NCBI RefSeq assembly: GCF_018977255.1
Contig: NW_024704746.1
Location: forward strand, 1 to 52,909
Direction: 5' to 3'
Length of the DNA: 52,909 nt
Origin: Callorhinchus milii
Taxonomy: Eukaryota
The notes beneath the pieces were generated by a model. That model did no database searches and was not told the DNA's origin. It saw nothing but the letters and a program-made list of their open reading frames with translations. The position numbers and the translations under genes were made by a program. Within the stretch, counting starts at the first letter, position 1; each line of letters begins with the position of its first letter. This document shows, one piece after another, positions 4,424 to 52,909 of this stretch.

Positions 4424-4424
4424 A

Positions 4425-4510
4425 CACACCTGACCTCACACACCCACATACACACCCGACCTCACACACCCACTTACACACCCGAGCTCAGACACCCACC
4501 TACACACCCA
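4425..4510. repeat. ~26-bp CA-rich minisatellite at the left outer edge of the palindrome (mirror at about 19145-19215)
   Basis: About 3.5 copies of acacccgacctcacacacccac(t/c)tac. Confidence 0.8.
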
Positions 4511-4524
4511 ATCTGAGACACTCT

Positions 4525-4915
4525 CCTACAAGGCTGTCCTCGCTGCTGTGTTGTGCTCAGGCCTGTGGCATCCCGGTTGCACAGGACATAGGGCTGTATG
4601 CACTACTGTGTAGTTAAAAAGGTCTGTGGCATCCCTTTTGCTCAGAACAAAGGGTTGTGCACACTGCTGTGGTATGCGCAGGCCTGTGGCGGCTCTACTG
4701 TACAGGACAAAGTACTGCTCATAGTACTGTGGTATGCACAGGCCTGTGATTGCCCTGCTGCACAGGACACAGGCCTGTCTGCATGGCGTTGGTGTGCGAA
4801 GACCTGTGGCAGTCAGCTTGCAATGGACACAGGGCTGTCTGCAATGCTATGGTATGCACAGGTCTGTGGTGGTCTTGTTTCACAGGACACAGGCTGTCCA
4901 CACCGCTGTGGAGGC
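4525..4915. repeat. 60-bp tandem repeat, about 6.5 diverged copies (mirror at about 18740-19130)
   Basis: Successive 60-nt lines start in register (gcctgtggca/ggtctgtggc/ggcctgtggc/ggcctgtgat/gacctgtggc/ggtctgtggt), with a shared caggacacagggctg..tgctgtggtatgc core. Confidence 0.9.
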
Positions 4916-4919
4916 ACGT

Positions 4920-5036
4920 AGGACTTGGCTGTCCTGATGAAGGGTCGTGGATCCAAAACGTTGACTTACTTTCCTTTCTCCATAGATGCTGCCTGACCTG
5001 CTGACTGTTCCCAGCGACTTCTGTTTTTGTCTTCAA
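4920..5036 (+). mobile_element. Penelope-like element terminal fragment with a degenerate minimal hammerhead ribozyme (mirror at about 18619-18735, - strand)
   Basis: gtc-CTGATGA-a-gggtc-gtg-gatcc-AAAAC-gtt-gac is followed by agatgctgcctgacctgctga...ccagc, the flank I recognise from the abundant chondrichthyan Penelope-derived repeat. Confidence 0.7.
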
Positions 5037-5037
5037 G

Positions 5038-7858
5038 CATTCTATTCCTTTCTCCCTCATGTACCTATTTAGCTTCCCCTTAAATATATCTGTGCTATTT
5101 GCCTCCACAAATGTTCCACTTTCCCACTGCTCTCTGTGTGAAGAAATTTCTTCCAACTTCCCTATTTGATCTATTCTTGACTATTTTATGTTGATGGGCC
5201 CTGGTTTTGGTCTCCCCCACAAGTGGAAATATCTTCCTTATGTCTATTCTATCAAAACCTTTCATCATTTTAAAAACCTCTATCAGGCCACCCCTTACCC
5301 TCCTCTTTTCTGAGAAAAGAGTTCAAGTATGTTCAGCCTTTCCTGATAGGTATAACCTCTCAGTTCTGGGATCGAACGCCTTTTGGAAATCTAAATATAT
5401 TACATATATAGTGTAAACATAAATATATTAAATATATAGTGGAGTCCTGTGGCTCAGTGGTTAGAGCACTCGCTTTGCAAGCGAGAGACCTGAGTTCAAT
5501 TCCAGGCAGAGGGCGAAACCTTGGGCAAGTTTCCTTACTCCACACAGAGCCTAATAATAATCCCTCCAAAACCAAAAACAATAATAAATTGGTCATTTTC
5601 AATCTACGACTGTTTGTGGGACATTGCTGTGCGCAATTGGCTGCCGCGTTTGCCCACAAATATATAGTCAATTCACTTTACAGTGTGTTCTGTGAAGCGC
5701 TTTGGGACGTCCTCCCGACGTGAAAAGCGCTATATCAAATGCAAGGATTATTATTATTATTATTATTATTATCTATCGCATTCCCCTTGTCTACTCTTTC
5801 TGTTACCTTCAAATAATTCAATGAGGTTGGTCAAGCATGACCTTTCTTTTTGGAATCTGTACTGACTATTCTTTATTATGTTTTCCATTTCTAGATGTTT
5901 TTCTATTACCTCTTTCAGTAAGGATTCCATTATCTTTCCTACCCCTGATGTTAAGCTGACAGGTCTATAGTGCCCTGGGGTTGTTCTATCTCCCTTTTTA
6001 AATATAGGTATAACATTAGCTATGCTCCAGTCCTCTGGCACTACTCCCTTTTCTATTGAGTTATTATATATGTGTAATAGTGCCTCTGCAATCTTTTCCT
6101 TTGATTCTTTTAATATATGCGGATGCAAACCATCTGGACCAGGGGTTTTATCCTCTCTGAGTTTTGTTAGTTTTTCGATTATATCTCCCCTTTGTATCTT
6201 AAATGTACTTGTATGTATTATTTTTGATCTAGTCTTCTACTGTCATGTCCACCTGATCTATGTCTGTAGAATATTTTACTATTTCTTTTTATATTTCTTG
6301 ATAATTTTATTTCATAATTCCTCTTTGCCTTCCTAATTATTTTTTGGACTATTTTCCTGACCTCTTCGTATTTTTGTTGCTGTTTATGTACCTTGTGAAC
6401 CCTTCTTTCCTGAGTCTCAACGTTTCTCTTATGACGGTGTCTCATTATTATTTAAGCTTTGTCTTGCTTTTTAGCAGAATATATTTCTCCTGGACTATAT
6501 TGATCACTGTTTTAAATGTTTCCCACTGCTGCTCTATCGCTTTGTTGCCAATATTGTTTTCCAGTTTATTTTCCCAAGTTCCATTCTCATCCCCTCAAAA
6601 TCAGCTTTTTCCCAATCTATTACCCTGGTCTTTGTCATACTAATTTCCTTCTCAATCTTTATCTTAAACCTTATTAAGTTATGATCGCTATTGCCTAGAT
6701 GTTCCCCTACTCGTACTTTTACCTGCTCTGGTTCATTTCCCATTACTAAATCCAGCAGGGATTTCCCCCTTCTTGGGCCGCTTACATACTGGGTAAGAAA
6801 AGAGTCCTGTACACATTGAAGGAACTCCATTCCCTTATCCCCTTAAACCTACCTTTTCTCATCAATAAATTTGGGGGTAGTTGAAATCTCCCATGATTTT
6901 TGCTCTATGTCTTTTACTCATTTCCCTAATTTGCTTGCATATTTCTTCCTCTACCCCCATTCCACCATTAGGTGGTCTGTAGAGTACCCCTATTTGTGTG
7001 ATCGATCCTTTCTTATCTTTCATCTCTATCCACACAGATTCTGTTTCTAGCTCACTGTTGGCTACGTCCCTTCTTTCTACTGCCACAATGTTATCCTTAA
7101 CGAGTACAGCTACTCCACCGCTCTTTTTCCCATCTCTATCCTTTTCCCATGTCTATCCTTTCTAAATACGTTATACCCTGCAATGTTTAATTGCCAGTCC
7201 TATTCTTTCTGTAGCCACGGTTCAGTAATCCCAATTATACCTTGTTCCTCACCACAAATTATTACCTCCAGTTTTCCTGTTTTATTTCAGATGCTGTGTA
7301 CATTGCTGCACAGACAGTTTAATTCATCATTATTATAAATTGTTCCTCATTTTATTTTTGACAGCCTTTTTACACTTCTGTTCTATAATTGTATTAATTC
7401 CTTGACCATTTATAATCTCCTTATTTCTTATTTTTGTCTGGCTTGAGTCACTTCCTTCTAATCCCTCCCTGGCCTTTACTAGTTTAAAGCCTTTGCTCTG
7501 TTTATCCTTTCTGCTCGGACTTGGTCCCCTTTCTTCAGGTGGAGCCCATCCTATTTATACAGCTCCATATTGCTGCCAGCGTCCCCATGAAGTGGAACCC
7601 TTCTTTCCCACACCAATCCTTTAGCCACGTGTTAACTTTCCTAATCTGTTTCTCCCTATTCCAGTTCGCACATGGCTCAGGTAATAATCCAGATTATTAC
7701 CCTCGAGGTCCTGTCTTTTAACTTAACTCCTAACTCCTAAAACTCCCTCTGCAGGACCTCCTCCCTGTTTTTTCCTATGTCGTTTATCCCAATATGGACC
7801 ACAACAAGTGGATCTGGCCCTTCCCTTCCAAATTCCTCTTCAGCTCCTTCAGATCTAT
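5038..7858 (-). mobile_element. CR1 LINE (ORF1 esterase end + ORF2 endonuclease/RT), internally deleted and interrupted by a SINE
   Basis: ORF1 PLVVVHIGINDIG; endonuclease YRPPN, IMGDFNYP and GNSDHNLI; RT PGPDGLHPHILKE, NVIPIFKKGD..YRPVSLTS and IYLDFQKAFD, after which it jumps directly to 3' ORF2 sequence. Confidence 0.92.
5441..5771 (+). mobile_element. tRNA(Ala)-derived SINE with a partial Deu-like core and L2-type 3' tail, full length
   Basis: A box tggctcagtgg, anticodon arm ctcgc-tttgcaa-gcgag (TGC), B box gagttcaattcc and a (tta)n tail; inserted within the CR1 RT. Confidence 0.92.
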
Positions 7859-7859
7859 G

Positions 7860-7998
7860 GAGTGCCCGTGGCGGCCTTGCTGCACATAAAACAAGCTGCA
7901 CACACTGCTGTGGTATGCGCTGGGCCAGTTGCACAGGACACGGGGCTGTGCATACTGCTGTGCCTTGCGCAGGTCTGTGGTGGCCGCTTGTACAGGAT
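7860..7998. repeat. Further ~2 copies of the 60-bp repeat (mirror at about 15656-15794)
   Basis: tgcacaggacacggggctgtgcatactgctgtgccttgcgcaggtctgtgg matches the 4525-4915 unit. Confidence 0.8.
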
Positions 7999-8019
7999 TA
8001 TATTATATTGTATTATATT

Positions 8020-8590
8020 ACGGCCCGCTCTGCCTTCCCCCACCTCCGGAACATCGCCTGACTCCTCCCCTCAGGCCACTGATATCCTCATACACCCATT
8101 TGTCATCTCAACGCTTGACTATGAAAACTCCCTCCACAAGCTACAGATCATCCAGAACTCTGCAACTTGTATCCTCTCCTGCACCAGGCTCCGTGAATCC
8201 ATCATCCCCACCCTCGTCCGGCTCCTCAAAATCCTCACTTTCAAGGCCCTCCATGGCCTTGCCCCCTCCTACCTCTCTTCCTCCACTCAGCAGGCTCTGG
8301 CCTGCTCCATGTCTCCTGCCCGGCCTACCCTACCATCGGCGGCTGGGCTTTCAGCCTCTCTGACCCCACTCTTTCGAACTCCATCCCACAATCCCTTCAC
8401 CCTGCTGCCTCCCTTGCTTGCATCATGACCTCCTTTTCAACCGTGCCTTCAGCTACCCTCCAACCTCTCTGCCATCCCTCGTCCCAACCCTACCCCTGCC
8501 ACGGTCGGTTCCTGATCCCCGACAGTTCAGCACTTTGGGATGTCCTCCCGACGTGAAGGTGCTTTACAAATGTAATTTTATTATCGTTGT
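8020..8590 (+). mobile_element. L2 3' fragment with tail (mirror at about 15065-15634, - strand)
   Basis: LDYENSLHKLQIIQNSA..KILTFKALHGLAPSYL, then the tail tttgggatgtcctcccgacgtgaaggtgctttacaaatgtaat. Confidence 0.85.
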
Positions 8591-8861
8591 TTATATTTAT
8601 ATCCCTGTAGTTAATGAACAGCAACTGTTTAGCACAACAACAGAACCAGCAAAATCCTTTCTCCTTTCTGTGAGAACACTGACACTGTGACGAGCTCCTG
8701 TCTCAGAGCCTCCTGTCACTCACTGAGCTGCCAAACAGTCAGACTCTGGGGAACTGCAGCACATAACATGGACAGAGGAAAATCCGCTCCTGCATGTTAT
8801 ACAACTGGGGTATAGTTTGCCAGTTCAAGGCGCTGATTTAATGATAGCATCAGCGGCTCTG

Positions 8862-9178
8862 TGTTAACAACAAAATTATATTTGTAAAGCCCTTATTGCG
8901 TCGGGATGACATCCCAAGGCGCTGGACAGACAGAGTTAAGGACCTGAGCTGAGGGTTAGGGGAGGATGGACGGCAGGTTGGGAAGCAGGAGATCAAAAGT
9001 ACGGTTGAAGAGGAGGTGGGTCTTGAAGGTGGCAAGACGGAGGGACTGCGGGCTGATGTTCCAGAGGGTGGGTGCAGAGCAATGTCCCACCCGCTGATAG
9101 TGGGGCGAGCGAGGCGGGGGGTGTGAAGCAGCCCACAGCCCACTGAACAAACAGGATGGTACAGGGTTAGGAGGTCAG
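8862..9178 (-). mobile_element. L2 3' fragment with tail, fused directly to the truncated H2A (mirror at about 14476-14792, + strand)
   Basis: In the mirror copy it reads tgacctcctaaccc...ccttcaagacccacctcctcttcaaccg...gcgccttgggatgtcatcccgacg...tacaaatataattttgttgtt. Confidence 0.85.
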
Positions 9179-9411
9179 GGGTCGGGGGTGATGCTGGTCT
9201 TCTTGCTGCCCGCCAGCTCCAGCACCTCAGCGATCAGATACTCGAGCACCGCGGCCACATAGACCGGGGCTCCGGCCCCCACGCCATCAGCGTAGTTGCC
9301 TTTACGGAGATGTCTGTGGACGCGGCCCACGGGGAACTGCAGTCCGGCCCGGGAGGAGCGGGACTTGGCCTGGGCCCGGGCTTCACCTCCAGTCTCCCCA
9401 CGTCCTGACAT
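9175..9411 (-). pseudogene. H2A: Truncated histone H2A (78 codons), left-arm copy
   Basis: [78 protein letters not shown]. Five codons are deleted after LELAG; helix 3, the docking domain and the stem-loop are lost. Confidence 0.88.
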
Positions 9412-9734
9412 CTTGACTAAGATTCCGACACCAACCAGAGCGGATTCTGTGCTTAAATAGGCTCCGAGCGTCAGGCCCTTCATTTCCTGCCCAATCAGAT
9501 CTCCTCGCACTGCAGCCCCAGCCCCGGCCCCCACAGCACATCGGGCTCTCAGCCAATCACAGCACAGAGGCTGGGAGGCTGGGGATTGGTTGCCAACCCC
9601 CGGGGTCCCATTGGGGAACCGGTTATGCTAAAGAGGGATGAACGGACTGCTTTGCTGGGATTGGATGGCGATAATATATAAGAGGAGGTTCAGAACACTG
9701 CCCGACACTGTGTCGGTGGTATCAAGAGAGCAGA
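9412..9734. promoter_or_regulatory. Divergent H2A/H2B promoter, left arm
   Basis: H2A TATA-like TATTTAA (9453-9459, - strand), CCAAT at 9491 and 9553, ATTGG at about 9585, 9610 and 9660, and H2B TATATAA at 9675-9681. Confidence 0.8.
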
Positions 9735-10139
9735 ATGGCTGGTGAGGGCAAATCCGAGGGCAAAGCCGCTAAATCCGAGGGCAAAGGAGCGCCCAAAAAA
9801 GGCAGCAAGAAAGCGATTCGCAAACCGCAGACTGCGGGCAAGAAGCGCAGGAGGTCGAGGAAGGAGAGTTACTCCATCTACGTGTACAAGGTGATGAAGC
9901 AGGTCCACCCGGACACCGGCATCTCCTCCAAGGCCATGAGCATCATGAACTCCTTTGTGAATGACATCTTCGAGCGCATCGCGTCCGAGGCTTNNNNNNN
10001 NNNNNNNNNNNNNNNNNNNNNNNNNNNNNNNNNNNNNNNNNNNNNNNNNNNNNNNNNNNNNNNNNNNNNNNNNNNNNNNNNNNNNNNNNNNNNNNNNNNN
10101 NNNNNNNNNNNNNNNNNNNNNNNNNNNNNNNNNNNNNNN
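9735..10139 (+). CDS. H2B: Histone H2B with an atypical N-terminal tail, left-arm copy (3' part hidden by Ns; end inferred)
   Basis: 86 visible codons [26 protein letters not shown]...[45 protein letters not shown], then 162 Ns (9994-10155). The canonical remaining 48 aa plus stop would end at 10139, 30 nt before the stem-loop. Confidence 0.85.
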
Positions 10140-10165
10140 NNNNNNNNNNNNNNNNCATCTACACA

Positions 10166-10211
10166 CAAAGGCTCTTTTCAGAGCCACACACCACCTCTCC
10201 GACAGAGCTGT
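10166..10211 (+). terminator. Replication-dependent histone mRNA 3' stem-loop plus histone downstream element
   Basis: caaaGGCTCT-TTTC-AGAGCCacaca (stem-loop 10170-10185) and the U7-binding-like acagagctgt at 10202-10211. Confidence 0.95.
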
Positions 10212-10731
10212 AGCAAACGCGCCTTAAGCTGTGTGTGCAGTGCCCGTCCCCGCGGGACCACTGCCCTCTGTGGTTCCACAAGAGGGTCCCATCCGCCCTC
10301 AGCGGCGGATCCTCTCGGCCTTCAGCCCCAATGCCGTCAGCATCGTCAACGGTTTGGGAATCTTAAAGCGATTACAAACGATCCGCGTCCTTAATGTTCC
10401 CTTTTACTCGGATCGTGGAAATACTTTTGGGGCTTCTGATCGGTGGGGAAGGACTTTGTTGGGAGGAGCGTTTTGTTTAATTAAACGAAGTATGAAATCT
10501 TGATCGCGCTCCGCATTCAAACCGATTTTCAAGGATATTCAGGTGAAATAGTTGAAAAACATCAAAATCTCTCCTGGTAATGAGATCCGATTAGAAAAAG
10601 AATTAAAATGGCCATCAATCCGTGTAATGAGACGGAGGTAATATTCGCCTCTAAAGGACATTCACATTCACTCTCCTTTGTCTCCGTGAAATTGGCGCTT
10701 TCATCAATGGTCTGGAAAGGCTTCAGAGCCA

Positions 10732-12921
10732 CCGGGTCAGCACAGGGGGCGCCACTGAGCCCCCTCCCCGGGTCAGCACAGGGGGCGCCACTGAGCCCCC
10801 TCCCCGGGGACACCGGGGCAGCACAGGGGGCGCCACTGAGCCCCCTCCCCGGGGACACCGGGGCAGCACAGGGGGCGCCACTGAGCCCCCTCCCCGGGTC
10901 AGCACAGGGGGCGCCACTGAGCCCCCTCCCCGGGTCAGCACAGGGGGCGCCACTGAGCCCCCTCCCCGGGGACACCGGGGCAGCACAGGGGGCGCCACTG
11001 AGCCCCCTCCCCGGGTCAGCACAGGGGGCGCCACTGAGCCCCCTCCCCGGGTCAGCACAGGGGGCGCCACTGAGCCCCCTCCCCGGGTCAGCACAGGGGG
11101 CGCCACTGAGCCCCCTCCCCGGGTCAGCACAGGGGGCGCCACTGAGCCCCCTCCCCGGGTCAGCACAGGGGCGCCACTGAGCCCCCTCCCCGGGTCAGCA
11201 CAGGGGGCGCCACTGAGCCCCCTCCCCGGGGACACCGGGGCAGCACAGGGGGCGCCACTGAGCCCCCTCCCCGGGGACACCGGGGCAGCACAGGGGGCGC
11301 CCCTGAGCCCCCTCCCCGGGGCAGCACAGGGGGCGCCACTGAGCCCCCCTCCCCGGGGACACTGGGGCAGCACAGGGGGCGCCAGTGAGCCCCCTCCCCG
11401 GGGACACCGGGGCAGCACAGGGGGCGCCACTGAGCCCCCCTCCCCTCCCCCAAACCAACGGGGACACTGGTGCAGCACAGGGGGCGCCACTGAGCCCCCT
11501 CCCCGGGGACACTGGGGCAGCACAGGGGGCGCCACTGAGCCCCCTCCCCGGGGACACTGGGGCAGCAAAGGGGGCGCCAGTGAGCCCCCCTCCTCCCCCC
11601 CAAACCAACGGGGACACTGGTGCAGCACAGGGGGCGCCACTGAGCCCCCTCCCCGGGGACACTGGGGCAGCACAGGGGGCGCCAGTGAGCCCCCCTCCCC
11701 TCCCCCAAACCAACGGGGACACTGGTGCAGCACAGGGGGCGCCACTGAGCCCCTCCCCGGGGACACTGGGGCAGCACAGGGGGCGCCACTGAGCCCCCTC
11801 CCCGGGGACACTGGGGCAGCAAAGGGGGCGCCAGTGAGCCCCCCTCCCCCCCCCAAACCAACGGGGACACTGGTGCAGCACAGGGGGCGCCACTGAGCCC
11901 CCTCCCCGGGGACACCGGGGCAGCACAGGGGGCGCCACTGAGCCCCCTCCCCGGGGACACCGGGGCAGCACAGGGGGCGCCACTGAGCCCCCTCCCCGGG
12001 GACACCGGGGCAGCACAGGGGGCGCCCCTGAGCCCCCTCCCCGGGGACACTGGGGCAGCACAGGGGGCGCCAGTGAGCCCCCCTCCCCGGGGACACTGGG
12101 GCAGCAAAGGGGGCGCCAGTGAGCCCCCCTCCCCCCCCCCAAACCAACGGGGACACTGGTGCAGCACAGGGGGCGCCACTGAGCCCCCTCCCCGGGGACA
12201 CTTGGGCAGCACAGGGGGCGCCACTGAGCCCCCTCCCCGGGGACACCGGGGCAGCACAGGGGGCGCCACTGAGCCCCCTCCCCGGGGACACCGGGGCAGC
12301 ACAGGCGGCGCCACTGAGCCCCCTCCCCGGGGACACAGGGGCAGCACAGGGGGCGCTACTTAGCCCCCCTCCCCGGGGACACAGGGGCAGCACAGGGGGC
12401 GCCACTGAGCCCCCTCCCCGGGGCAGTACAGGGGGCGTCCCCTGTGCTGCCCCGGTGTCCCCGGGGAGGGGGCTCAGTGGCGCCCCCTGTGCTGCCCCGG
12501 TGTCTCCGGGGAGGGGGCTCAGTGGCGCCCCGGTGTCCCCGGGGAGGGGGCTCAGTGGCGCCCCCTGTGCTGACCCGGGGAGGGGGCTCAGTGGCGCCCC
12601 CTGTGCTGACCCGGGGAGGGGGCTCACTGGCGCCCCCTGTGCTGCCCCAGTGTCCCCGGGGAGGGGGGCTCAGTGGCGCCCCCTGTGCTGACCCGGGGAG
12701 GGGGCTCAGTGGCGCCCCCTGTGCTGCCCCGGTGTCCCCGGGGAGGGGGCTCAGTGGCGCCCCCTGTGCTGACCCGGGGAGGTGGCTCAGTGGCGCCCCC
12801 TGTGCTGACCCGGGGAGGGGGCTCAGTGGCGCCCCCTGTGCTGACCCGGGGAGGGGGCTCAGTGGCGCCCCCTGTGCTGACCCGGGGAGGGGGCTCAGTG
12901 GCGCCCCCTGTGCTGACCCGG
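10732..12921. repeat. GC-rich minisatellite (36, 45 and ~60-bp unit variants) whose orientation flips at 12436/12437
   Basis: Core cagcacagggggcgccactgagccccctcccc plus gggt (36 bp), ggggacaccgggg (45 bp) or a ccccaaaccaac insert (~60 bp); units are reverse-complemented after 12437. Confidence 0.97.
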
Positions 12922-13441
12922 TGGCTCTGAAGCCTTTCCAGACCATTGATGAAAGCGCCAATTTCACGGAGACAAAGGAGAGTGAATGTGAATGTCCTTT
13001 AGAGGCGAATATTACCTCCGTCTCATTACACGGATTGATGGCCATTTTAATTCTTTTTCTAATCGGATCTCATTACCAGGAGAGATTTTGATGTTTTTCA
13101 ACTATTTCACCTGAATATCCTTGAAAATCGGTTTGAATGCGGAGCGCGATCAAGATTTCATACTTCGTTTAATTAAACAAAACGCTCCTCCCAACAAAGT
13201 CCTTCCCCACCGATCAGAAGCCCCAAAAGTATTTCCACGATCCGAGTAAAAGGGAACATTAAGGACGCGGATCGTTTGTAATCGCTTTAAGATTCCCAAA
13301 CCGTTGACGATGCTGACGGCATTGGGGCTGAAGGCCGAGAGGATCCGCCGCTGAGGGCGGATGGGACCCTCTTGTGGAACCACAGAGGGCAGTGGTCCCG
13401 CGGGGACGGGCACTGCACACACAGCTTAAGGCGCGTTTGCT

Positions 13442-13487
13442 ACAGCTCTGTCGGAGAGGTGGTGTGTGGCTCTGAAAAGAGCCTTTG
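13442..13487 (-). terminator. Histone stem-loop plus downstream element, right-arm copy
   Basis: ggctctgaaaagagcc at 13468-13483 is the reverse complement of the stem-loop; acagctctgt at 13442-13451 is the reverse complement of the downstream element. Confidence 0.95.
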
Positions 13488-13513
13488 TGTGTAGATGNNN
13501 NNNNNNNNNNNNN

Positions 13514-13918
13514 NNNNNNNNNNNNNNNNNNNNNNNNNNNNNNNNNNNNNNNNNNNNNNNNNNNNNNNNNNNNNNNNNNNNNNNNNNNNNNNNNNNNNNN
13601 NNNNNNNNNNNNNNNNNNNNNNNNNNNNNNNNNNNNNNNNNNNNNNNNNNNNNNNNNNNAAGCCTCGGACGCGATGCGCTCGAAGATGTCATTCACAAAG
13701 GAGTTCATGATGCTCATGGCCTTGGAGGAGATGCCGGTGTCCGGGTGGACCTGCTTCATCACCTTGTACACGTAGATGGAGTAACTCTCCTTCCTCGACC
13801 TCCTGCGCTTCTTGCCCGCAGTCTGCGGTTTGCGAATCGCTTTCTTGCTGCCTTTTTTGGGCGCTCCTTTGCCCTCGGATTTAGCGGCTTTGCCCTCGGA
13901 TTTGCCCTCACCAGCCAT
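13514..13918 (-). CDS. H2B: Histone H2B with an atypical N-terminal tail, right-arm copy (3' part hidden by Ns; end inferred)
   Basis: The visible translation is identical to the left copy; Ns at 13498-13659. Confidence 0.85.
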
Positions 13919-14242
13919 TCTGCTCTCTTGATACCACCGACACAGTGTCGGGCAGTGTTCTGAACCTCCTCTTATATATTATCGCCATCCAATCCCAGCA
14001 AAGCAGTCCGTTCATCCCTCTTTAGCATAACCGGTTCCCCAATGGGACCCCGGGGGTTGGCAACCAATCCCCAGCCTCCCAGCCTCTGTGCTGTGATTGG
14101 CTGAGAGCCCGATGTGACGTAGAGACAGGGGGCTGGGGCTGCAGTGCGAGGAGATCTGATTGGGCAGGAAATGAAGGGCCTGACGCTCGGAGCCTATTTA
14201 AGCACAGAATCCGCTCTGGTTGGTGTCGGAATCTTAGTCAAG
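13919..14242. promoter_or_regulatory. Divergent H2B/H2A promoter, right arm, with a CRE/ATF-like TGACGT
   Basis: Mirror of the left promoter, but it has TGACGT at 14115-14120, which the left arm lacks. Confidence 0.8.
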
Positions 14243-14479
14243 ATGTCAGGACGTGGGGAGACTGGAGGTGAAGCCCGAGCCAAGGCCAAGTCCCGCTCCT
14301 CCCGGGCCGGACTGCAGTTCCCCGTGGGCCGCGTCCACAGACATCTCCGTAAAGGCAACTACGCTGATGGCGTGGGGGCCGGAGCCCCGGTCTATGTGGC
14401 CGCGGTGCTCGAGTATCTGATCGCTGAGGTGCTGGAGCTGGCGGGCAGCAAGAAGACCAGCATCACCCCCGACCCCTGA
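14243..14479 (+). pseudogene. H2A: Truncated histone H2A (78 codons), right-arm copy
   Basis: [33 protein letters not shown]...[15 protein letters not shown], with the same deletion and L2 fusion as the left copy. Confidence 0.88.
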
Positions 14480-15796
14480 CCTCCTAACCCTGTACCATCC
14501 TGTTTGTTCAGTGGGCTGTGGGCTGCTTCACACCCCCCGCCTCGCTCGCCCCACTATCAGCGGGTGGGACATTGCTCTGCACCCACCCTCTGGAACATCA
14601 GCCCGCAGTCCCTCCGTCTTGCCACCTTCAAGACCCACCTCCTCTTCAACCGTACTTTTGATCTCCTGCTTCCCAACCTGCCGTCCATCCTCCCCTAACC
14701 CTCAGCTCAGGTCCTTAACTCTGTCTGTCCAGCGCCTTGGGATGTCATCCCGACGCAATAAGGGCTTTACAAATATAATTTTGTTGTTAACACAGAGCCG
14801 CTGATGCTATCATTAAATCAGCGCCTTGAACTGGCAAACTATACCCCAGTTGTATAACATGCAGGAGCGGATTTTCCTCTGTCCATGTTATGTGCTGCAG
14901 TTCCCCAGAGTCTGACTGTTTGGCAGCTCAGTGAGTGACAGGAGGCTCTGAGACAGGAGCTCGTCACAGTGTCAGTGTTCTCACAGAAAGGAGAAAGGAT
15001 TTTGCTGGTTCTGTTGTTGTGCTAAACAGTTGCTGTTCATTAACTACAGGGATATAAATATAAACAACGATAATAAAATTACATTTGTAAAGCACCTTCA
15101 CGTCGGGAGGACATCCCAAAGTGCTGAACTGTCGGGGATCAGGAACCGACCGTGGCAGGGGTAGGGTTGGGACGAGGGATGGCAGAGAGGTTGGAGGGTA
15201 GCTGAAGGCACGGTTGAAAAGGAGGTCATGATGCAAGCAAGGGAGGCAGCAGGGTGAAGGGATTGTGGGATGGAGTTCGAAAGAGTGGGGTCAGAGAGGC
15301 TGAAAGCCCAGCCGCCGATGGTAGGGTAGGCCGGGCAGGAGACATGGAGCAGGCCAGAGCCTGCTGAGTGGAGGAAGAGAGGTAGGAGGGGGCAAGGCCA
15401 TGGAGGGCCTTGAAAGTGAGGATTTTGAGGAGCCGGACGAGGGTGGGGATGATGGATTCACGGAGCCTGGTGCAGGAGAGGATACAAGTTGCAGAGTTCT
15501 GGATGATCTGTAGCTTGTGGAGGGAGTTTTCATAGTCAAGCGTTGAGATGACAAATGGGTGTATGAGGATATCAGTGGCCTGAGGGGAGGAGTCAGGCGA
15601 TGTTCCGGAGGTGGGGGAAGGCAGAGCGGGCCGTAATATAATACAATATAATATAATCCTGTACAAGCGGCCACCACAGACCTGCGCAAGGCACAGCAGT
15701 ATGCACAGCCCCGTGTCCTGTGCAACTGGCCCAGCGCATACCACAGCAGTGTGTGCAGCTTGTTTTATGTGCAGCAAGGCCGCCACGGGCACTCCA

Positions 15797-18617
15797 TAGA
15801 TCTGAAGGAGCTGAAGAGGAATTTGGAAGGGAAGGGCCAGATCCACTTGTTGTGGTCCATATTGGGATAAACGACATAGGAAAAAACAGGGAGGAGGTCC
15901 TGCAGAGGGAGTTTTAGGAGTTAGGAGTTAAGTTAAAAGACAGGACCTCGAGGGTAATAATCTGGATTATTACCTGAGCCATGTGCGAACTGGAATAGGG
16001 AGAAACAGATTAGGAAAGTTAACACGTGGCTAAAGGATTGGTGTGGGAAAGAAGGGTTCCACTTCATGGGGACGCTGGCAGCAATATGGAGCTGTATAAA
16101 TAGGATGGGCTCCACCTGAAGAAAGGGGACCAAGTCCGAGCAGAAAGGATAAACAGAGCAAAGGCTTTAAACTAGTAAAGGCCAGGGAGGGATTAGAAGG
16201 AAGTGACTCAAGCCAGACAAAAATAAGAAATAAGGAGATTATAAATGGTCAAGGAATTAATACAATTATAGAACAGAAGTGTAAAAAGGCTGTCAAAAAT
16301 AAAATGAGGAACAATTTATAATAATGATGAATTAAACTGTCTGTGCAGCAATGTACACAGCATCTGAAATAAAACAGGAAAACTGGAGGTAATAATTTGT
16401 GGTGAGGAACAAGGTATAATTGGGATTACTGAACCGTGGCTACAGAAAGAATAGGACTGGCAATTAAACATTGCAGGGTATAACGTATTTAGAAAGGATA
16501 GACATGGGAAAAGGATAGAGATGGGAAAAAGAGCGGTGGAGTAGCTGTACTCGTTAAGGATAACATTGTGGCAGTAGAAAGAAGGGACGTAGCCAACAGT
16601 GAGCTAGAAACAGAATCTGTGTGGATAGAGATGAAAGATAAGAAAGGATCGATCACACAAATAGGGGTACTCTACAGACCACCTAATGGTGGAATGGGGG
16701 TAGAGGAAGAAATATGCAAGCAAATTAGGGAAATGAGTAAAAGACATAGAGCAAAAATCATGGGAGATTTCAACTACCCCCAAATTTATTGATGAGAAAA
16801 GGTAGGTTTAAGGGGATAAGGGAATGGAGTTCCTTCAATGTGTACAGGACTCTTTTCTTACCCAGTATGTAAGCGGCCCAAGAAGGGGGAAATCCCTGCT
16901 GGATTTAGTAATGGGAAATGAACCAGAGCAGGTAAAAGTACGAGTAGGGGAACATCTAGGCAATAGCGATCATAACTTAATAAGGTTTAAGATAAAGATT
17001 GAGAAGGAAATTAGTATGACAAAGACCAGGGTAATAGATTGGGAAAAAGCTGATTTTGAGGGGATGAGAATGGAACTTGGGAAAATAAACTGGAAAACAA
17101 TATTGGCAACAAAGCGATAGAGCAGCAGTGGGAAACATTTAAAACAGTGATCAATATAGTCCAGGAGAAATATATTCTGCTAAAAAGCAAGACAAAGCTT
17201 AAATAATAATGAGACACCGTCATAAGAGAAACGTTGAGACTCAGGAAAGAAGGGTTCACAAGGTACATAAACAGCAACAAAAATACGAAGAGGTCAGGAA
17301 AATAGTCCAAAAAATAATTAGGAAGGCAAAGAGGAATTATGAAATAAAATTATCAAGAAATATAAAAAGAAATAGTAAAATATTCTACAGACATAGATCA
17401 GGTGGACATGACAGTAGAAGACTAGATCAAAAATAATACATACAAGTACATTTAAGATACAAAGGGGAGATATAATCGAAAAACTAACAAAACTCAGAGA
17501 GGATAAAACCCCTGGTCCAGATGGTTTGCATCCGCATATATTAAAAGAATCAAAGGAAAAGATTGCAGAGGCACTATTACACATATATAATAACTCAATA
17601 GAAAAGGGAGTAGTGCCAGAGGACTGGAGCATAGCTAATGTTATACCTATATTTAAAAAGGGAGATAGAACAACCCCAGGGCACTATAGACCTGTCAGCT
17701 TAACATCAGGGGTAGGAAAGATAATGGAATCCTTACTGAAAGAGGTAATAGAAAAACATCTAGAAATGGAAAACATAATAAAGAATAGTCAGTACAGATT
17801 CCAAAAAGAAAGGTCATGCTTGACCAACCTCATTGAATTATTTGAAGGTAACAGAAAGAGTAGACAAGGGGAATGCGATAGATAATAATAATAATAATAA
17901 TAATAATCCTTGCATTTGATATAGCGCTTTTCACGTCGGGAGGACGTCCCAAAGCGCTTCACAGAACACACTGTAAAGTGAATTGACTATATATTTGTGG
18001 GCAAACGCGGCAGCCAATTGCGCACAGCAATGTCCCACAAACAGTCGTAGATTGAAAATGACCAATTTATTATTGTTTTTGGTTTTTGGAGGGATTATTA
18101 TTAGGCTCTGTGTGGAGTAAGGAAACTTGCCCGAGGTTTCGCCCTCTGCCTGGAATTGAACTCAGGTCTCTCGCTTGCAAAGCGAGTGCTCTAACCACTG
18201 AGCCACAGGACTCCACTATATATTTAATATATTTATGTTTACACTATATATGTAATATATTTAGATTTCCAAAAGGCGTTCGATCCCAGAACTGAGAGGT
18301 TATACCTATCAGGAAAGGCTGAACATACTTGAACTCTTTTCTCAGAAAAGAGGAGGGTAAGGGGTGGCCTGATAGAGGTTTTTAAAATGATGAAAGGTTT
18401 TGATAGAATAGACATAAGGAAGATATTTCCACTTGTGGGGGAGACCAAAACCAGGGCCCATCAACATAAAATAGTCAAGAATAGATCAAATAGGGAAGTT
18501 GGAAGAAATTTCTTCACACAGAGAGCAGTGGGAAAGTGGAACATTTGTGGAGGCAAATAGCACAGATATATTTAAGGGGAAGCTAAATAGGTACATGAGG
18601 GAGAAAGGAATAGAATG
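15797..18617 (+). mobile_element. CR1 LINE, mirror copy
   Basis: ORFs 15720-15917, 16568-16792, 16824-17120 and 17526-17885 have the same translations as the left-arm CR1. Confidence 0.92.
17883..18214 (-). mobile_element. tRNA-derived SINE, mirror copy
   Basis: Reverse complement of 5441-5771, with one substitution and a 1-bp indel seen. Confidence 0.92.
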
Positions 18618-19450
18618 CTTGAAGACAAAAACAGAAGTCGCTGGGAACAGTCAGCAGGTCAGGCAGCATCTATGGAGAAAGGAAAGTAAGTCAACGTTTT
18701 GGATCCACGACCCTTCATCAGGACAGCCAAGTCCTACGTGCCTCCACAGCGGTGTGGACAGCCTGTGTCCTGTGAAACAAGACCACCACAGACCTGTGCA
18801 TACCATAGCATTGCAGACAGCCCTGTGTCCATTGCAAGCTGACTGCCACAGGTCTTCGCACACCAACGCCATGCAGACAGGCCTGTGTCCTGTGCAGCAG
18901 GGCAATCACAGGCCTGTGCATACCACAGTACTATGAGCAGTACTTTGTCCTGTACAGTAGAGCCGCCACAGGCCTGCGCATACCACAGCAGTGTGCACAA
19001 CCCTTTGTTCTGAGCAAAAGGGATGCCACAGACCTTTTTAACTACACAGTAGTGCATACAGCCCTATGTCCTGTGCAACCGGGATGCCACAGGCCTGAGC
19101 ACAACACAGCAGCGAGGACAGCCTTGTAGGAGAGTGTCTCAGATTGGGTGTGTAGGTGGGTGTGTGAGCTCGGGTGCGTAGGTGGGTGTGTGAGGTCGGG
19201 TGTGTAAGGTGAGTGTCTGACAGAGAGAGAAACAAGTACTTGCATTTTTGTAGCATTTCAAACTGACAACAACAGCCACAATAACAACAAATTACATTTG
19301 TATGGCACCTTATCACATCAGGAGGATGTCCCAAGTCATAATGAGCTGCCCAACTCAAAGCTGCCCCACACAAGCGAGTCCCCCACACCCGCTCCCAGCA
19401 AATCTCTTCTTAAACACCTCTGGCTTTTGAATAAAAATCAAAACACACAG

Positions 19451-19772
19451 ATAATAATAATAATAATAATCCTTGCATTTGATATAGAGCCTTATCACGT
19501 CTTCTAGATGTCCCAAAGCGCTTCACAGAATAGACTGTAAAGTGAATTGACTGTATATTAGTGGGCAAACGCGGCAGCCAATTGCGCACAGCAGTATCCA
19601 CAAACAGTCATGGATTGAAAATGATCAATTTATTATTGTTTTGTTTTAGACGGATTATTATTAGGCTCTGTGTGGAGTAAGGAAACTTGCCCAAGGTTTC
19701 GCCCTCTGCCTGGAATTGAACTCCGGTACCTCGCTTGCACAGCGAGTGCTCTAACCACTGAGCTACAGGACT
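19451..19772 (-). mobile_element. tRNA-derived SINE, same family
   Basis: (taa)n tail through to ctctaaccactgagctacaggac. Confidence 0.92.
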
Positions 19773-22792: not shown

Positions 22793-23114
22793 AATAATAA
22801 TAATAATAATCCTTGAATTTGATATAGCGTTTTTCACGTCTTCTTGATGTCTCAAAGCGCTTCACAGAATATACTATAAAGTGAATTGACTGTATATTTG
22901 TGGGCGAACGCGGCAGCCAATTGCGCACAGCAATGTCCCACAAACAGTCATGGATTGAAAATGACCAATTTATTATTGTTTTGTTTTGGAGGGATTATTA
23001 TTATGCTCTGTGTGGAGTAAGGAAACTTGCCCAAGGTTTCGCCCTCTGCCTGGAATTGAACCCAGGTGTTTCGCTTGCAAAGCGAGGGCTCTGACCACTG
23101 AGCTACAGGACTCC
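22793..23114 (-). mobile_element. tRNA-derived SINE, same family
   Basis: Full-length reverse copy ending in gagctacaggactcc. Confidence 0.92.
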
Positions 23115-24037
23115 ACTAAATGCAAGAGAGAAGTTTTCCACTTTATCTGTTAACTATTCCATTTTCAGTGTTCCCTTCAGGACTGTGAAAAATATTAAGG
23201 TCCTAAGTGCTAAGGTTATTTAGAAAATTTAAATATAATGTGAAAATTTCCTTTATTGCATATTGACCAATATTCTAATTTATTTTGCTTCTCTCCCAAA
23301 CTTGACACTTGTAGTTCACACATTTCCTAACGAAGCAGGAACATGTAACATACTCCCAGCTGTGTTATAAACTCAGCCGCTCGGTGCATTATGAGAGCTG
23401 CCAGGGTGATTAGATCATCCACGTGATGCCTCACATCAATGAACCTGCAGCATTAATCAGTCTTATGTTAACTTGGGAGCTCTTGTTAGAAAATGCAGAA
23501 CTGGGAATGGGAGAGGGAGATAGCATGGAATTATTCCTCATTTGTTGACTAATAGGATGTAAAAAAGGTTCACTCAGAGTGTGTGAAAAACACACTCATT
23601 AAGATTTAATATGTTCAATAATGCAAGCAAACTTTCCATTCTATGCTTATTAGAAGCGCTCTGGGATATGATTGTTTATGGGACATTATAGTGGCAATTT
23701 ACGTATTGCCCCCCAAAATAAGTCACCCCACTTTACAATACATCGTGTGAAGCCCTTTGAGATGTCTCAATGATATGATAAGGTGCTATATCGAATTCAA
23801 AGTTTATTATTATTACTCCATGTGAAGGGCACTATACAAACGCAAGTTGTTGTTGTTCTTATAGGTGTGTAACAAATATTGCAAGGCGATGGATTCTGTT
23901 TTGTGATATTTCTTAACAAATTTGAGTGGAGTTTATTTTCATAAAGGAAGATCAGCAAGGAACTGCTGAACGGATGTAGCTCCTGAAGATGAGTTTGAGC
24001 AAGAAAAGGGTTGGCAAATAAATTGATGACGCTTTTA

Positions 24038-24153: not shown

Positions 24154-24710
24154 GGGGGGGTGGGGGGGGGGGTGTGAGGGGGGTTGAGGGGGGGGGGGGT
24201 GAGGGGTGGAGGGGGGTGTGGAGGGGGGTAGGGGGTGTGGGGGTGTGAGGGGGTGTGAGGGGGTGTTAGTGGGTGTGAGGGGGTGTGAGGGGGGGGGGGG
24301 GGGTGGGGGTGTGAGGGGGTGTTGGGGGGGCTGAGGGGGGGGGGTGGGGGGGGTGAGGGGGGGGGGGGGGGGGGCTGAGGGGGGGGGCTGAGGGGGGTGG
24401 GGGGGGTGAGGGGGTGGGGGGTGTGAGGGGGGGTTGAGGGGGTGTGAGGGGGGTGAGGGGGGGTGAGGGGGGTGTGAGGGGTGTGGGGGGGGGGTGTGGG
24501 GGGTGTGAGGGGTGGGGGGTGTGAGGGGTGGGGGGGTGAGGGTGTGAGGGGGTGTGAGGGGTGGGGGGTTGGGGGTGTGGGGGGTGTGAGGGGGGGTGTG
24601 GGGGGGCTGAGGGGGGGCTGAGGGGGGGGGGGGGGGTGAGGGGGGTGGGGGGGTGAGGGGGGGGCTGAGGGGGGTGGGGGGGTGAGGGGGGGTGGGGGCT
24701 GAGGGGGGTA
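24154..24710. repeat. G-rich low-complexity array ((G)n-TGTGA/TGA/CTGA), next to a 25-N gap (24129-24153)
   Basis: Continuous G runs separated by tgtga/tga/ctga; homopolymer lengths are probably unreliable. Confidence 0.9.
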
Positions 24711-25400
24711 CAGGCCGCTGTGTACACTATGTACTGAGCGCTATGTCGGGGCTGTGCACTCACCGCGGCTCAGACTGACTGACAGACAGACTGACTGCCG
24801 GGAGGGGGTCACGTGTTAAACCTGCCGTAAAGGCGGCTTCTGTTTCCCTTTGCGACACCGTGACCAGCAAAAACAGCCCGACCCGACCCCCGGCCCCCGG
24901 ACCCCCGGCCCGGCCCGGCCTGACCCCCCGCCCCGCCCCGCCCCGCCCCGGCCTCACACACACCCGGGCGGGCCTGGCGGGCGGGGCCGGGGCTGCCGTC
25001 ACCCCCTCCCCCCGGGTCTCAGGTTGTTTTTATTTCCAGGGAGAGCTCCACGAGGCCTTAGCGGCCTCTCCCCCCCCCCGGCCCCGCCCCCGCCCCTCCC
25101 CCCGCCGCCGGGGCCACTGCACAGACAGCACAATGGCGGCCATGGACCGGGAGATGATTCTCGCTGATTTTCAGGTGCGATCTTTACCATTTAAAAGCCT
25201 TTCTGTGTGTCCTCCCCTCCGCCCCCTGTCCCTGCCCTCCTCGGGCCTCTTTTGCCCCGTGTCTCTCCCCCGCCATTGCCTCCTGTGTCGGGCGGCGGCG
25301 GCTCGGTGCGGTGCGGTGCGGCGCGGCGCGGCCCCGGGCCGCTCCTGTCATGTCCCCGGGTTTGTGTGACCGCAGTGATTCCCGGGGGTGTCGGGCTGTT
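24710..25400. promoter_or_regulatory. CpG-island promoter of FAF1
   Basis: Very high GC and CpG content, tandem GC boxes (ccccgccccg, about 24925-24950 and 25080-25100), E-box GTCACGTG at 24808-24815, and a YY1-like aatggcggc over the ATG. Confidence 0.85.
25133..25174 (+). CDS. FAF1: FAS-associated factor 1, coding exon 1
   Basis: MAAMDREMILADFQ followed by a GT donor (cag|gtgcga); matches the vertebrate FAF1 N-terminus MDREMILADFQ. Confidence 0.95.
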
Positions 25401-34060: not shown

Positions 34061-34273
34061 ACCAAAAAAAATGCTTTTGCTGATAATAAGTACTTGCTGT
34101 TGATCGTAGTATTGTACCTGCAAGCTGTAGCATCTAAATTAGAAAGCTTCTGTGGAATAGATCTGACAACCTCTTGGCACTAAATTCAGAATAGCAAAGA
34201 AGGAAATTGGTGAGCTATCTTCCAACAGGAAATTATAATAATAGTAATCAACTTTGCATTCCATATGCATTCC

Positions 34274-34600
34274 GGAGTCCTGTAGCTCAGTGGTTAGAGC
34301 ACTCGCTTTGCAGGTGAGAGACCTGAGTTCAATTCCAGGCAGAGGGCGAAACCTTGGGCAAGTTTCCTTACTCCACACAGAGCCTAATAATAATCCCTCC
34401 AAAAACCCAAAACAATAATTAAATTGGTCATTTTCAATGTACGACTGTTTGTGGGACATTGTTGTGCGCAATTGGCTGCCGCGTTCGCCCACAAATATAC
34501 AGTCAATTCACTTTACAGTGTGTTCTGTGAAGCGCTTTGGGACGTCCTCCTGACGTGAAAAGCGCTATATCAAATGCAAGGATTATTATTATTATTATTA
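34274..34600 (+). mobile_element. tRNA-derived SINE, full length
   Basis: ggagtcctgtagctcagtggttagagc...(tta)n. Confidence 0.92.
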
Positions 34601-34649
34601 TATCGTGCCATATCATATCGTTGAAACTCTCAAATTACTTCACTGGATT

Positions 34650-35166: not shown

Positions 35167-35488
35167 ATAATAATAATAATCCTTGCATTTGATATAGCAC
35201 TTTTCACGTCGGGAGGGGATGTCCCAAAGCGCTTCACAGAACACATTGTAAAGTGAATTGACTGTATATTTGTGGGCGAACGCGGCAGCCAATTGCGCAC
35301 AGCAATGTCCCACAAACAGTCGTAGATTGAAAATGACCAATTTATTATTGTTTTTGGTTTTGGAGGGACTATTATTAGGCTCTGTGTGGAGTAAGGAAAC
35401 TTGCCCAAGGTTTCGCCCTCTGCCTGGAATTGAACTCAGGTCTCTCACTTGCAAAGCGAGTGCTCTAACCACTGAGCTACAGGACTCC
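35167..35488 (-). mobile_element. tRNA-derived SINE, full length
   Basis: Reverse copy nearly identical to 34274-34600. Confidence 0.92.
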
Positions 35489-35834
35489 ATGATATATCAA
35501 AGGATTATTATTAAAATGTCTTGTGCACATTGTGACCAACTATATTCCTTTTTGGTGTATGTATAATTGAAACTTTGTTATAAGTTTCTTCAAAACTACT
35601 AAGAAAAATTATGACAACTTTAGATCTATTGTTGGAGAGAGAGGTCAACACCCAGTCACTGAAATTGCATCTTAATAGTGTGTCATCCTTGTTCAAAGAT
35701 GTTACTATCCTATGTTTATTCATTTGCTAAAGTGTTTCTATTCCAAGAAAGACATTAGGTAGCCTCCTCAGGAATATTTTATACAATGCAATATTTGATC
35801 CCTTGGAAAATCAGCATATTGTGCTACTATATTG

Positions 35835-36735
35835 TGCCACGTAAAAGGCTGTTGCATGATTAGAGCCCATGGAATTAAAGGTAATATATTAGCATGGATA
35901 GGAGAGCGGATAAACAGAGAGTAGGGATAAATGGGTTCTTCTCAGATTGGCGGGATGTGACTAGTGGAGTGCCACAAGGATCAGTGCTGGGCCTCGGTTA
36001 TTTACAAACTATATCAATGATTTAGGTGAGGAAATAGAACTTAACATATCTAAATTTGCGGACGATACGAAGATAGGTGGGGGAGTAAGCTGTGAGGATG
36101 ACACATGAAGAATGCAAAGGGAAATAAACAGGCTAGGTGAGTGGGCAAGAAGGTGGCAGATGGAGTATAACGTGGTGAAGTGTGAAGTTATTCACCTAAG
36201 TAGTAAAAATAGAAAAGCAGATTATTTTCTAGAGGTGGAGAGACTAAGTAATGTTAGTGTTCAGAGGGATTTGGGTGTCCTTGCACACCAGTCACAAAGA
36301 GTTAGTCTGTAGGTACAGCAAGCAATTAGGAAGGCTAATCTAGAATATTGTGTGCAGTTTTGGTCTCATTATTTAAGAAAGGACATAGAGGGGGGTGCAG
36401 CTTAGATTCACTAGGTTGGTTCCTGGGATGAGGTGGTTGACCCATGAGGAGAGGGTGAGTAAACTAGGTCTGTATTCTCGAGTTGAGTTGAGGAAACATT
36501 TCTTCATTCAGAGGGTGGTGAATTTGTGGAATTCTCTATCCCAGAAGGCTGTGGATGCTCAGTCCTTGAGCATATTCAAGACTGAGGTGGATTTCTAAAG
36601 GATAGAGGGATTAAGAGATATGAGGATACGGTTAAATGGAATTAGGTTAGAAGATCACCCATGATTTTATTAAATTGGAGGGCAGGTTCGAGGGGCCAAA
36701 TGGCTTACTCCTGCTCCTACATCTTATGGTCTAAG
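35835..36735 (+). mobile_element. CR1 LINE 3' part (RT), internally deleted
   Basis: [21 protein letters not shown] and WQMEYNV.KCEVIH motifs; tail ggccaaatggcttactcctgctcctacatcttatgg. Confidence 0.9.
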
Positions 36736-52074: not shown

Positions 52075-52909
52075 ATGACCATAAAACCATAAGATGTAGG
52101 AGCAGGAGTAGGCCTTTCGGCCCCTCGAGCCTGCCCACCATTTAATAAGATCATGGATGATCTTCTAACGTAATTCCATTTACCCTCTCTATCCCCATAT
52201 CCCTTAATCCCTCTATCCTTTAGAAATCTATCAACCTCAGTCTTGAATATGTTCAAGGACTGAGCATCCACAGCCTCTGGGGTAGAGAATTCCACAAATT
52301 CACTACTCTCTGAGTGAAGAAATGTTTCCTCAACTCAGTTCGAAAAGGCTGACCCTTAATCTTGAGACTATGACCCCTAGTTTTAGATTCTCCAACCAGG
52401 GTAAACAGTCTCACGGCATCTACCCCGTCAAGACCTTAAGAATTTTATAGGTTTCTATAAGATCACTTCTAATTCTTCTATATTCTTGAGAATATAGACC
52501 TAGTCTTACTCAACCTCTCCTCATGGGTCAGCCCCCTCATCTCAGGAACTAACCTCTTGAATCTACGCTGCACCCCTAAGGTGAGTATGTCCTTTCTTAA
52601 ATAAAGAGACCAAAACTGCACACAATATTCTAGGTGTGACTCACCAAGACCTTATAAACTGCAGCAAGACTTCCCTAATCTTGTACTCTTTAACCCTTTT
52701 GCAACGAACGCCAACATGGCATTAGCCTTCCTAATTGCTTGCTGTACCCACAGACTAACTTTTTGTGACTGATGTACAAGGACACCAAAATCTCTCTGAA
52801 CACTAACACCATCCAGTCTCTCCCCCTCTAGAAAATAATCCACTTTTCTATTTTTACTATCTAGGTGAATAACTTCACACTTCCCCACGTTATACTCCAT
52901 CTATAGGTG
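52075..52909 (-). mobile_element. CR1 LINE 3' part, same subfamily as 35835-36735
   Basis: MEYNVGKCEVIHL...QRDFGVLVH...AIRKANAML on the - strand; tail ccataagatgtaggagcaggagtaggcc. Confidence 0.92.

Follow-up and report, generated by a model that had tools for sequence, protein, structure and literature searches.

Two questions are raised by this locus of Callorhinchus milii: why a minisatellite reverses its orientation near the centre of a large palindrome, and whether the point of reversal is where the palindrome was born. The original prediction proposed that a fold-back or template switch at a micro-palindrome inside the repeat unit had seeded the whole duplication, and that the arrays had later changed asymmetrically. 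The window (the whole stretch of DNA analysed, 52,909 bp) is vertebrate DNA with many LINE and SINE fragments, and its self-alignment revealed one large inverted duplication of 14.8 kb (4436-19220). The duplicated segment has two copies in the window and is interstitial, as non-mirror sequence continues for 4.4 kb on one side and 33.7 kb on the other. Its parts are as follows.

4436..10729, + strand: left arm, unique part (self-alignment)
12924..19220, - strand: right arm, unique part (self-alignment)
4424..4530, + strand: CA-rich 26-bp repeat at the left outer boundary (repeat scan, self-alignment)
19125..19220, - strand: mirrored counterpart of the left CA-rich repeat, at the right outer boundary (repeat scan)
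10732..12437, + strand: forward minisatellite, 1,706 bp, 39 units of 35-60 bp, the first partial
12436..12921, - strand: reverse minisatellite, 486 bp, 13 units, the first partial, outer-type units only
12526..12558, - strand: truncated reverse unit R10, 33 bp, joined at a GGGGC microhomology
12418..12455, no strand: apex, 19 mirrored pairs, a forward core and a reverse core in GGCGCC register, with T12427 and T12438

The unique sequence amounts to 6.3 kb per arm. The outer arm parts differ at 18 of 5,561 columns (99.68% identity), while the inner parts are identical over 574 of 574 bp. All 18 differences are confined to three patches separated by identical blocks of 1,030 and 3,803 bp: seven lie at 4439-4491, in the CA-rich repeat of the outer edge, two (5522 and 5568) inside a SINE, and nine within 9372-9536. 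Judged from the arm sequences, the pattern fits either arm-to-arm conversion, with patches that escaped it or were imported, or a young duplication that took up patches from paralogues. Because the outer boundary too falls in a tandem repeat (26 bp, CA-rich), both junctions of the duplication lie in repeats. Arm identity drops to about 87% over the last 56 bp at the outer boundary, and degenerate 60-bp repeats (70-74% matches) are found just within this boundary in each arm (4639-4898 and 18882-19123). The outer flanks of the two arms differ from each other. A LINE cut at 4423 did not distinguish the original arm from the copy, since two other LINE copies in the window end at about the same point.

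Other repeats of the window include a young SINE, roughly 330 bp long and tRNA-like at its head (RF00005 at 5447-5509), of which six copies are 90-97% alike (5432-5766, 17888-18223, 19451-19772, 22793-23121, 34274-34601, and 35167-35497); an Rfam search of the window returned the tRNA-like SINE heads and nothing else. Two of the SINE copies, at 34225-34601 and 35167-35524, are inverted relative to each other and separated by about 570 bp. Three further inverted matches with 86-91% identity, located 16 kb apart at 36158-36730 and 52086-52902, are probably copies of repeat elements. A 555-bp G-rich array of about 60 GGGGGTGAG-like copies, followed by a GC-rich stretch with short repeats, occupies 24154-24949, which in its composition may resemble a CpG-island promoter. 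A GA-rich 20-22-bp repeat with about 23 copies (1-517) is cut by the window start.

Each arm carries a pair of divergently oriented histone genes.

9175..9411, - strand: truncated H2A, 78 codons followed by a stop (PF00125 residues 15-68, 27.5 bits)
14243..14479, + strand: second truncated H2A copy, differing from the left copy at two bases
9735..10185, + strand: H2B variant gene; long N-terminal tail; histone stem-loop (10170-10185) at its 3' end; C-terminal part reads N
13468..13918, - strand: H2B variant gene, second copy, with its stem-loop at 13468-13483

The truncated H2A is likely a pseudogene. The 86 visible amino acids of H2B equal the first 86 of P0001, a late histone H2B.L4-like protein of Callorhinchus milii, and a search with the H2B tail identified two proteins among 13 candidates, both late histone H2B.L4-like of the same species. 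P0001 comprises three accessions on two contigs, and P0002, 93% identical over the tail, comprises at least four accessions on one contig; these accessions on further contigs indicate that the H2A-H2B module is one of several copies in the genome. The N-terminal tail (9735-9872 and 13781-13918) holds a repeated KSEGK motif, of which the close variants KTDAK and KTEAK exist, and the H2B could represent a lineage-specific variant family. Between the two CCAAT boxes of the H2A-H2B promoter, a 15-bp block differs between the arms (9522-9536 versus 14117-14132; seven differences). The right-arm block holds TACGTCA, which we take to resemble a CRE/ATF site, and the left-arm block is without it; on the strength of this motif, the two H2B copies may be regulated differently. 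The H2A differences (9372 and 9376 in the left arm, 14278 and 14282 in the right; RAQAK on the left, RAKAK on the right) lie 150 bp from the promoter patch, and together with that patch they bring nine of the 18 arm differences into 165 bp, suggesting a single conversion tract from a paralogue. A literature search, thin on subscription journals, returned no description matching this histone locus, and in PMC8857922 the elephant shark appears merely as a search target for H2B.K.

The two minisatellite arrays are unequal in length and in make-up. The predicted lengths of about 1.7 kb of forward and 0.5 kb of reverse units agree with the 1,706 and 486 bp measured, giving an excess of 1,220 bp in the forward array; the GC content across 11001-13000 is 0.77 and 0.75. 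Forward units 0-17 are mainly of 36-bp and 45-bp types, whereas units 18-38 are without the GGTCAG type and include five 59-60-bp units (F18, F21, F23, F26, and F32), a class with zero members in the reverse array. The GGTCAG type occurs in F0-12 and R0-9 and is absent from F13-38. In make-up the reverse array matches forward units 0-17; R7 and F16 have the same sequence, and each is followed by a CCAG-start unit. When aligned to forward windows starting at 10732-11098, the reverse array scored 683-765 (best 764.5), against 512.5 for the apex-anchored window. In a unit distance matrix, the neighbours at the apex were not closest kin: R12, a 45-bp unit, is about four events from F38, a 36-bp unit, and R11 about five from F37, whereas R12 and R11 are each one event from ordinary 45-bp units, a type they share with F34. 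No derived variant was common solely to the apex-side units of both arrays among the 39 forward and 13 reverse units. Collinearity from the flank fails after 80 nt and again after R8/F17. The original prediction had suggested decomposing the arrays into units and aligning them from the apex and from the flanks; the arrays do flip at the CG, but followed outward from the apex the two sides do not mirror each other. Because the reverse array resembles the outer forward units and the units at the apex are not sisters, the mirror is anchored loosely from the flanks and not from the apex.

Single-unit changes follow a gradient of their own. Eleven of the 50 whole units carry a change found in no other unit (39 are without one), and they lie 0, 0, 1, 1, 2, 3, 5, 8, 14, 17, and 27 units from the apex, a crowding near it (p=0.001) that persists when the two apex units are left out (p=0.008); this count omits the two partial first units, and among the changes counted are one deletion and two in homopolymer length. 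Close to the apex, most of the variants are substitutions. T12427 and T12438, presented earlier as deviations sitting right at the apex, belong to this wider gradient and are not special. Poor homogenisation of end units would be the simplest cause; repair errors at the hairpin or local consensus errors could alternatively account for the two Ts or for the gradient.

Several other properties of the arrays were recorded. G-quadruplex patterns gave zero matches on both strands of the forward array. As a CTCF-motif minisatellite the array was rejected, with none of nine matches (14-letter core consensus, at most two mismatches) inside it and only the last nine letters fitting by eye. ATG-started frames run from the unique flank into the arrays (10608-11180 and 12356-13045; GSAQGAPLSPLP repeats, 190 and 229 aa); the left one showed no Pfam family above the cut-off, and such frames are likely incidental.

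At the apex itself, the geometry bears out what was first noticed. The quoted letters are found at 12423-12450, the centre lies between C12436 and G12437, and the mirror midpoint of the unique arms, placed earlier at about 11827, falls at 11826.5-11827.5, 610 bp from the apex. With the centre counted in, 19 symmetric pairs precede the breaks at 12417/12456, and both T changes are present as G-T pairs (T12427-G12446 and G12435-T12438). This is the longest such hairpin in the window, the runner-up having 12 pairs. A DNA fold of 12400-12473 yielded a 14-bp stem (12421-12452) with a 4-nt GCGT loop, a 9-nt bulge, and a further 12-bp stem, at -32.6 kcal/mol (z -5.78; none of 200 shuffles as good), compared with a mean of -19.5 and a best of -25.5 for 74-mers of the forward array (n=109). 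Of the two Ts, this fold places T12438 in the loop and T12427, as a wobble, in the stem. The description of the hairpin as spacerless is correct at the join, where no spacer is present, but only locally: exact arm identity ends 80 nt into the array (10808 and 12845), and beyond these points lies a centre of about 2 kb that is imperfectly complementary, 309 of 400 bases still pairing across the apex when 400 nt per side are folded. Cruciform extrusion at such a GC-rich centre (75-77% GC) is predicted to be poor. Nothing points to a function of the apex hairpin, and we propose that it is a by-product of the join rather than a functional element.

This description of the apex rests on one assembled sequence, which raises the question of whether the join is an artefact of library or assembly, in which H2A-H2B modules that are themselves real, being neighbours or paralogues, were fused, or a genuine spacer was lost, through a fold-back chimera or a polymerase skipping across the hairpin. 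A search for sequencing runs holding 12357-13497 listed 13 runs; four of one study (X4-X7) hold 0.70-0.73 of 94 sampled words, and three of another study hold 0.04-0.21. Of the 874 distinct 31-mers of this interval, unique flank makes up 62%, the border 3%, multi-copy array 16%, and single-copy or apex-crossing words 19%, so that the share of words found does not tell which words are missing. From X4-X7, four of these seven runs, 4, 12, 1, and 1 contigs were aligned to 12385-12480. Among the pieces listed, none spans 12385-12480 and none has a strand-change joint, although a gap in such contigs proves nothing. In all four runs a contig continues past 12437 as an ordinary forward unit, and one X5 piece covers 12432-12463 with one letter different, which we read as a CCCC-start unit variant and not as the junction. 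The letters of a 60-bp unit in an X5 contig indicate that the inner forward types exist outside the assembly. A GC-rich snap-back sequence is expected to drop out of amplified libraries. For PCR, such dropout is described in PMC8701086. Fold-back reads make up about 0.55-0.6% of ONT reads from genomic DNA (PMC12870357), and the further H2B accessions of P0001 and P0002 mean that paralogous modules could be misjoined. Even so, a fold-back read mirrors exactly from its apex, whereas the mirror here ends after 19 pairs; differences between the arms form three patches, among them a 15-bp block that was replaced, and the outer flanks that the arms reach are not the same; and the join keeps the unit register with no foreign letters, the near-apex variants being mostly substitutions. 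An artefact is unlikely in our judgement, though by no means negligible.

The hairpin by itself conveys little. Since all units end in the same core, a mirror results whichever two are joined head-to-head at the CG: across 1,369 such joins between forward units (F1-F37), the median was 13 pairs, and 18% gave at least 18, making 19 pairs unremarkable. The register is more informative. Only 1.9% of 200,000 random head-to-head joins reached at least 6 nt of inverted microhomology, and a join in GGCGCC register, beyond this chance level, was likely guided by microhomology, with the qualification that T12438 lies inside the presumed 6-bp overlap and the microhomology is deduced from the unit consensus with one base changed. 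Other words of the unit were left unused at the join, namely the 10-bp palindrome TCCCCGGGGA of the 45-bp unit and a 7-bp stem with an 8-nt loop. A hairpin needs 4-6 unpaired central bases (PMC7999016), which would leave the 6-bp GGCGCC a single pair, so that one copy cannot prime on itself. Any hairpin route must therefore bring two different units together, with asymmetry from the outset, and the join was probably made by the pairing of two different repeat copies. A junction located at a micro-palindrome thus does not identify the seed of a duplication. The earlier claim that fold-back or template switching at the micro-palindrome seeded the duplication stands with respect to the in-register join, whereas the apex as the seed of a symmetric palindrome is not shown, as the apex units are not sisters.

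A symmetric beginning would nevertheless be served by the in-register join. Under this alternative, which we regard as doubtful but worth serious consideration, a near-symmetric palindrome arose at GGCGCC through sister-strand annealing or a template switch at a fork, and the reverse array later lost about 1.2 kb between its own direct repeats by recombination or slippage while the apex was kept. The truncated R10 could then mark the site of the deletion, and R11 and R12 share the 45-bp length of F34; from the unit alone, R10 could reflect a loss of 12 bp only, or else be what a larger deletion in one arm left behind. Precedents exist, as yeast SUL1 amplicons delete one arm between the junction repeat and a distal copy (PMC4689423) and perfect palindromes in mice are soon made asymmetric (PMC8701086), and the earlier statement that asymmetric central loss stabilises palindromes is documented in the same two sources. 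The later asymmetric array change proposed at the outset may hold, since a one-arm deletion between direct repeats can give the same sequence, but it is disfavoured by a reverse array of outer types that aligns better to the outer forward array. Also against a symmetric birth are the missing variant common only to apex-side units, the pairing of a 36-bp F38 with a 45-bp R12, the failure of GGCGCC to form a stable hairpin on itself, and the need for an extra event and for a perfect palindrome with roughly 8-kb arms to survive.

We tentatively favour a join by offset fold-back, with a loop of about 1 kb and asymmetry from birth, as the most plausible among uncertain origins. Each unit holds self-complementary words, and any two units constitute an interrupted inverted repeat. 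A break or stalled fork may have exposed the array as a single strand, upon which a free 3' end in F38 would have paired over 6 nt with GGCGCC in a unit lying about 1 kb behind it in that strand. Primed by the annealed end, synthesis could then have copied the outer array together with about 6.3 kb of flank, so that the new arm would have received outer-type units only and the inner forward units would have been left as an unpaired loop; a second switch or join at the CA-rich repeat presumably terminated the copy. Subsequently, arm-to-arm gene conversion, or youth, would keep the unique arms near-identical, and the arrays would gain and lose units while poorly homogenised apex-side units collect private changes, the two Ts included. 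The anatomy, register, unit make-up, and variant gradient are seen directly, and it is from these that we infer every step of this origin and the conversion.

The attraction of the offset fold-back is that folding onto a distant unit gives the copy only those units outward of the partner, which yields the asymmetry in one step. In its favour count the register beyond chance; the reverse array of outer types only, with R7 identical to F16 and the higher flank-side alignment scores; the missing derived variant common to the apex-side units; and the private variants crowding at the apex, which is what an array end of long standing should show. With 1,220 bp, the excess is within the spacer range of human fold-back inverted duplications (766-70,466 bp, with 2-8 bp of inverted microhomology; PMC3907307), the loops of yeast fold-backs can reach thousands of nucleotides and the stems can be 4 bp (PMC7467729), and the 60-bp unit letters in run X5 count for it as evidence of inner forward types beyond the assembly. 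Against it, symmetric birth with one-arm deletion, or a later central deletion, yields the same sequence; the likeness of reverse and outer forward units could stem from conversion that began in the unique arms and moved inward; the truncation of R10 may be the mark of a deletion; the longer word (10 bp) and the 7-bp stem with its 8-nt loop were left unused; and T12438 lies in the 6-bp overlap, leaving the microhomology to the consensus. With collinearity broken after 80 nt and at R8/F17, the exact partner unit of the fold-back cannot be named.

A later central deletion would make the apex secondary: an older inverted duplication had another centre or a true spacer, subsequently lost through a deletion joined by microhomology. 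A forward and a reverse array have few direct repeats in common, the self-complementary words among them, and such a deletion would therefore also land in GGCGCC register. Junction deletions account for 93% of 118 rearrangements in a mouse transgene palindrome (PMC8701086), human X palindromes often show spacer deletions reaching the inner arm (PMC8327919), and the decayed outer edge of the arms (seven differences, 4439-4491) suggests that the duplication may have a greater age than its arm identity would imply. However, no remnant of another centre is visible, and the many private variants at the apex suggest that the present ends are not recent, though they could be old array ends. On balance, we consider this history improbable, and the offset fold-back retains our preference.

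Comparison with known systems places the locus among microhomology-primed inverted duplications, which it works like. The duplications of Hermetz et al. 2014 (PMC3907307) resemble it in their short inverted microhomology at the junction (2-8 bp there, 6 bp by consensus here) and perhaps in a kilobase stretch left unduplicated between the copies; here this would be the 1,220 bp of extra forward array with unit types absent from the reverse array, although this stretch is tandem repeat and may have changed since. They differ in being megabase events that proceed via a dicentric and lie beside terminal deletions or translocations, whereas the present duplication is 14.8 kb and interstitial; membership in the strict class was rejected, as no adjacent terminal deletion, translocation, or ring lies within the window. 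A further difference is that here a single minisatellite provides the pairing words as well as the loop. Yeast large-loop fold-back inversions (PMC7467729) and ODIRA or tandem inverted duplications with secondary one-arm deletion (PMC4689423) share interrupted short inverted repeats at the junction and later asymmetry via deletion between repeats. An ODIRA amplicon was rejected, since ODIRA is an inverted triplication with an origin (PMC4689423) and two copies are present in the window.

Among palindromes, the 15.4-kb perfect transgene palindrome in mouse (via the review PMC8701086) is similar in total size and in its central asymmetry, which here takes the form of an apex 610 bp off the midpoint and an exact mirror of 19 pairs; it differs in its known perfect start and small deletions, the centre here being a tandem array. 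Mammalian X and Y palindromes (PMC8327919) are alike in having arms more than 99% identical, a protein-coding gene per arm, and an unstable centre, matched by an arm identity of 99.68% over 5,561 columns and by the H2B variant with its 3' stem-loop in both arms, but they are described as exceeding 10 kb, and this palindrome totals 14.8 kb with unique arms of only 6.3 kb, below that size, and no single-copy spacer. PATRRs (PMC7999016) share a palindrome with a repetitive spacerless centre; a PATRR was rejected, as the centre is 75-77% GC, not AT-rich, and its exact mirror is 19 pairs. The literature search, which was thin on subscription journals and is weak evidence of absence, found no description of a minisatellite flip at a palindrome centre, and no nearby earlier finding emerged by sequence, in relatives, or by word.

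The feature is thus a rearrangement scar of a known kind, with the twist that pairing words and loop alike come from the minisatellite. Provided that it is real, the feature offers a natural example from the germ line of an inverted duplication in which one minisatellite provides the junction as well as the buffer. The variant units serve as markers that could separate asymmetric birth from later deletion, which is seldom possible at junctions in unique sequence. More speculatively, and with little confidence at present, minisatellite units with self-complementary words might act as a fold-back substrate with many sites, provide a ready-made loop, and then become a self-adjusting spacer, letting a 14.8-kb palindrome without a single-copy spacer persist in a cartilaginous-fish germ line, with two lineage-specific H2B copies kept identical by arm-to-arm conversion. 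Were this true, the apex position and the array lengths would vary among animals, recording the birth and repair of the palindrome.
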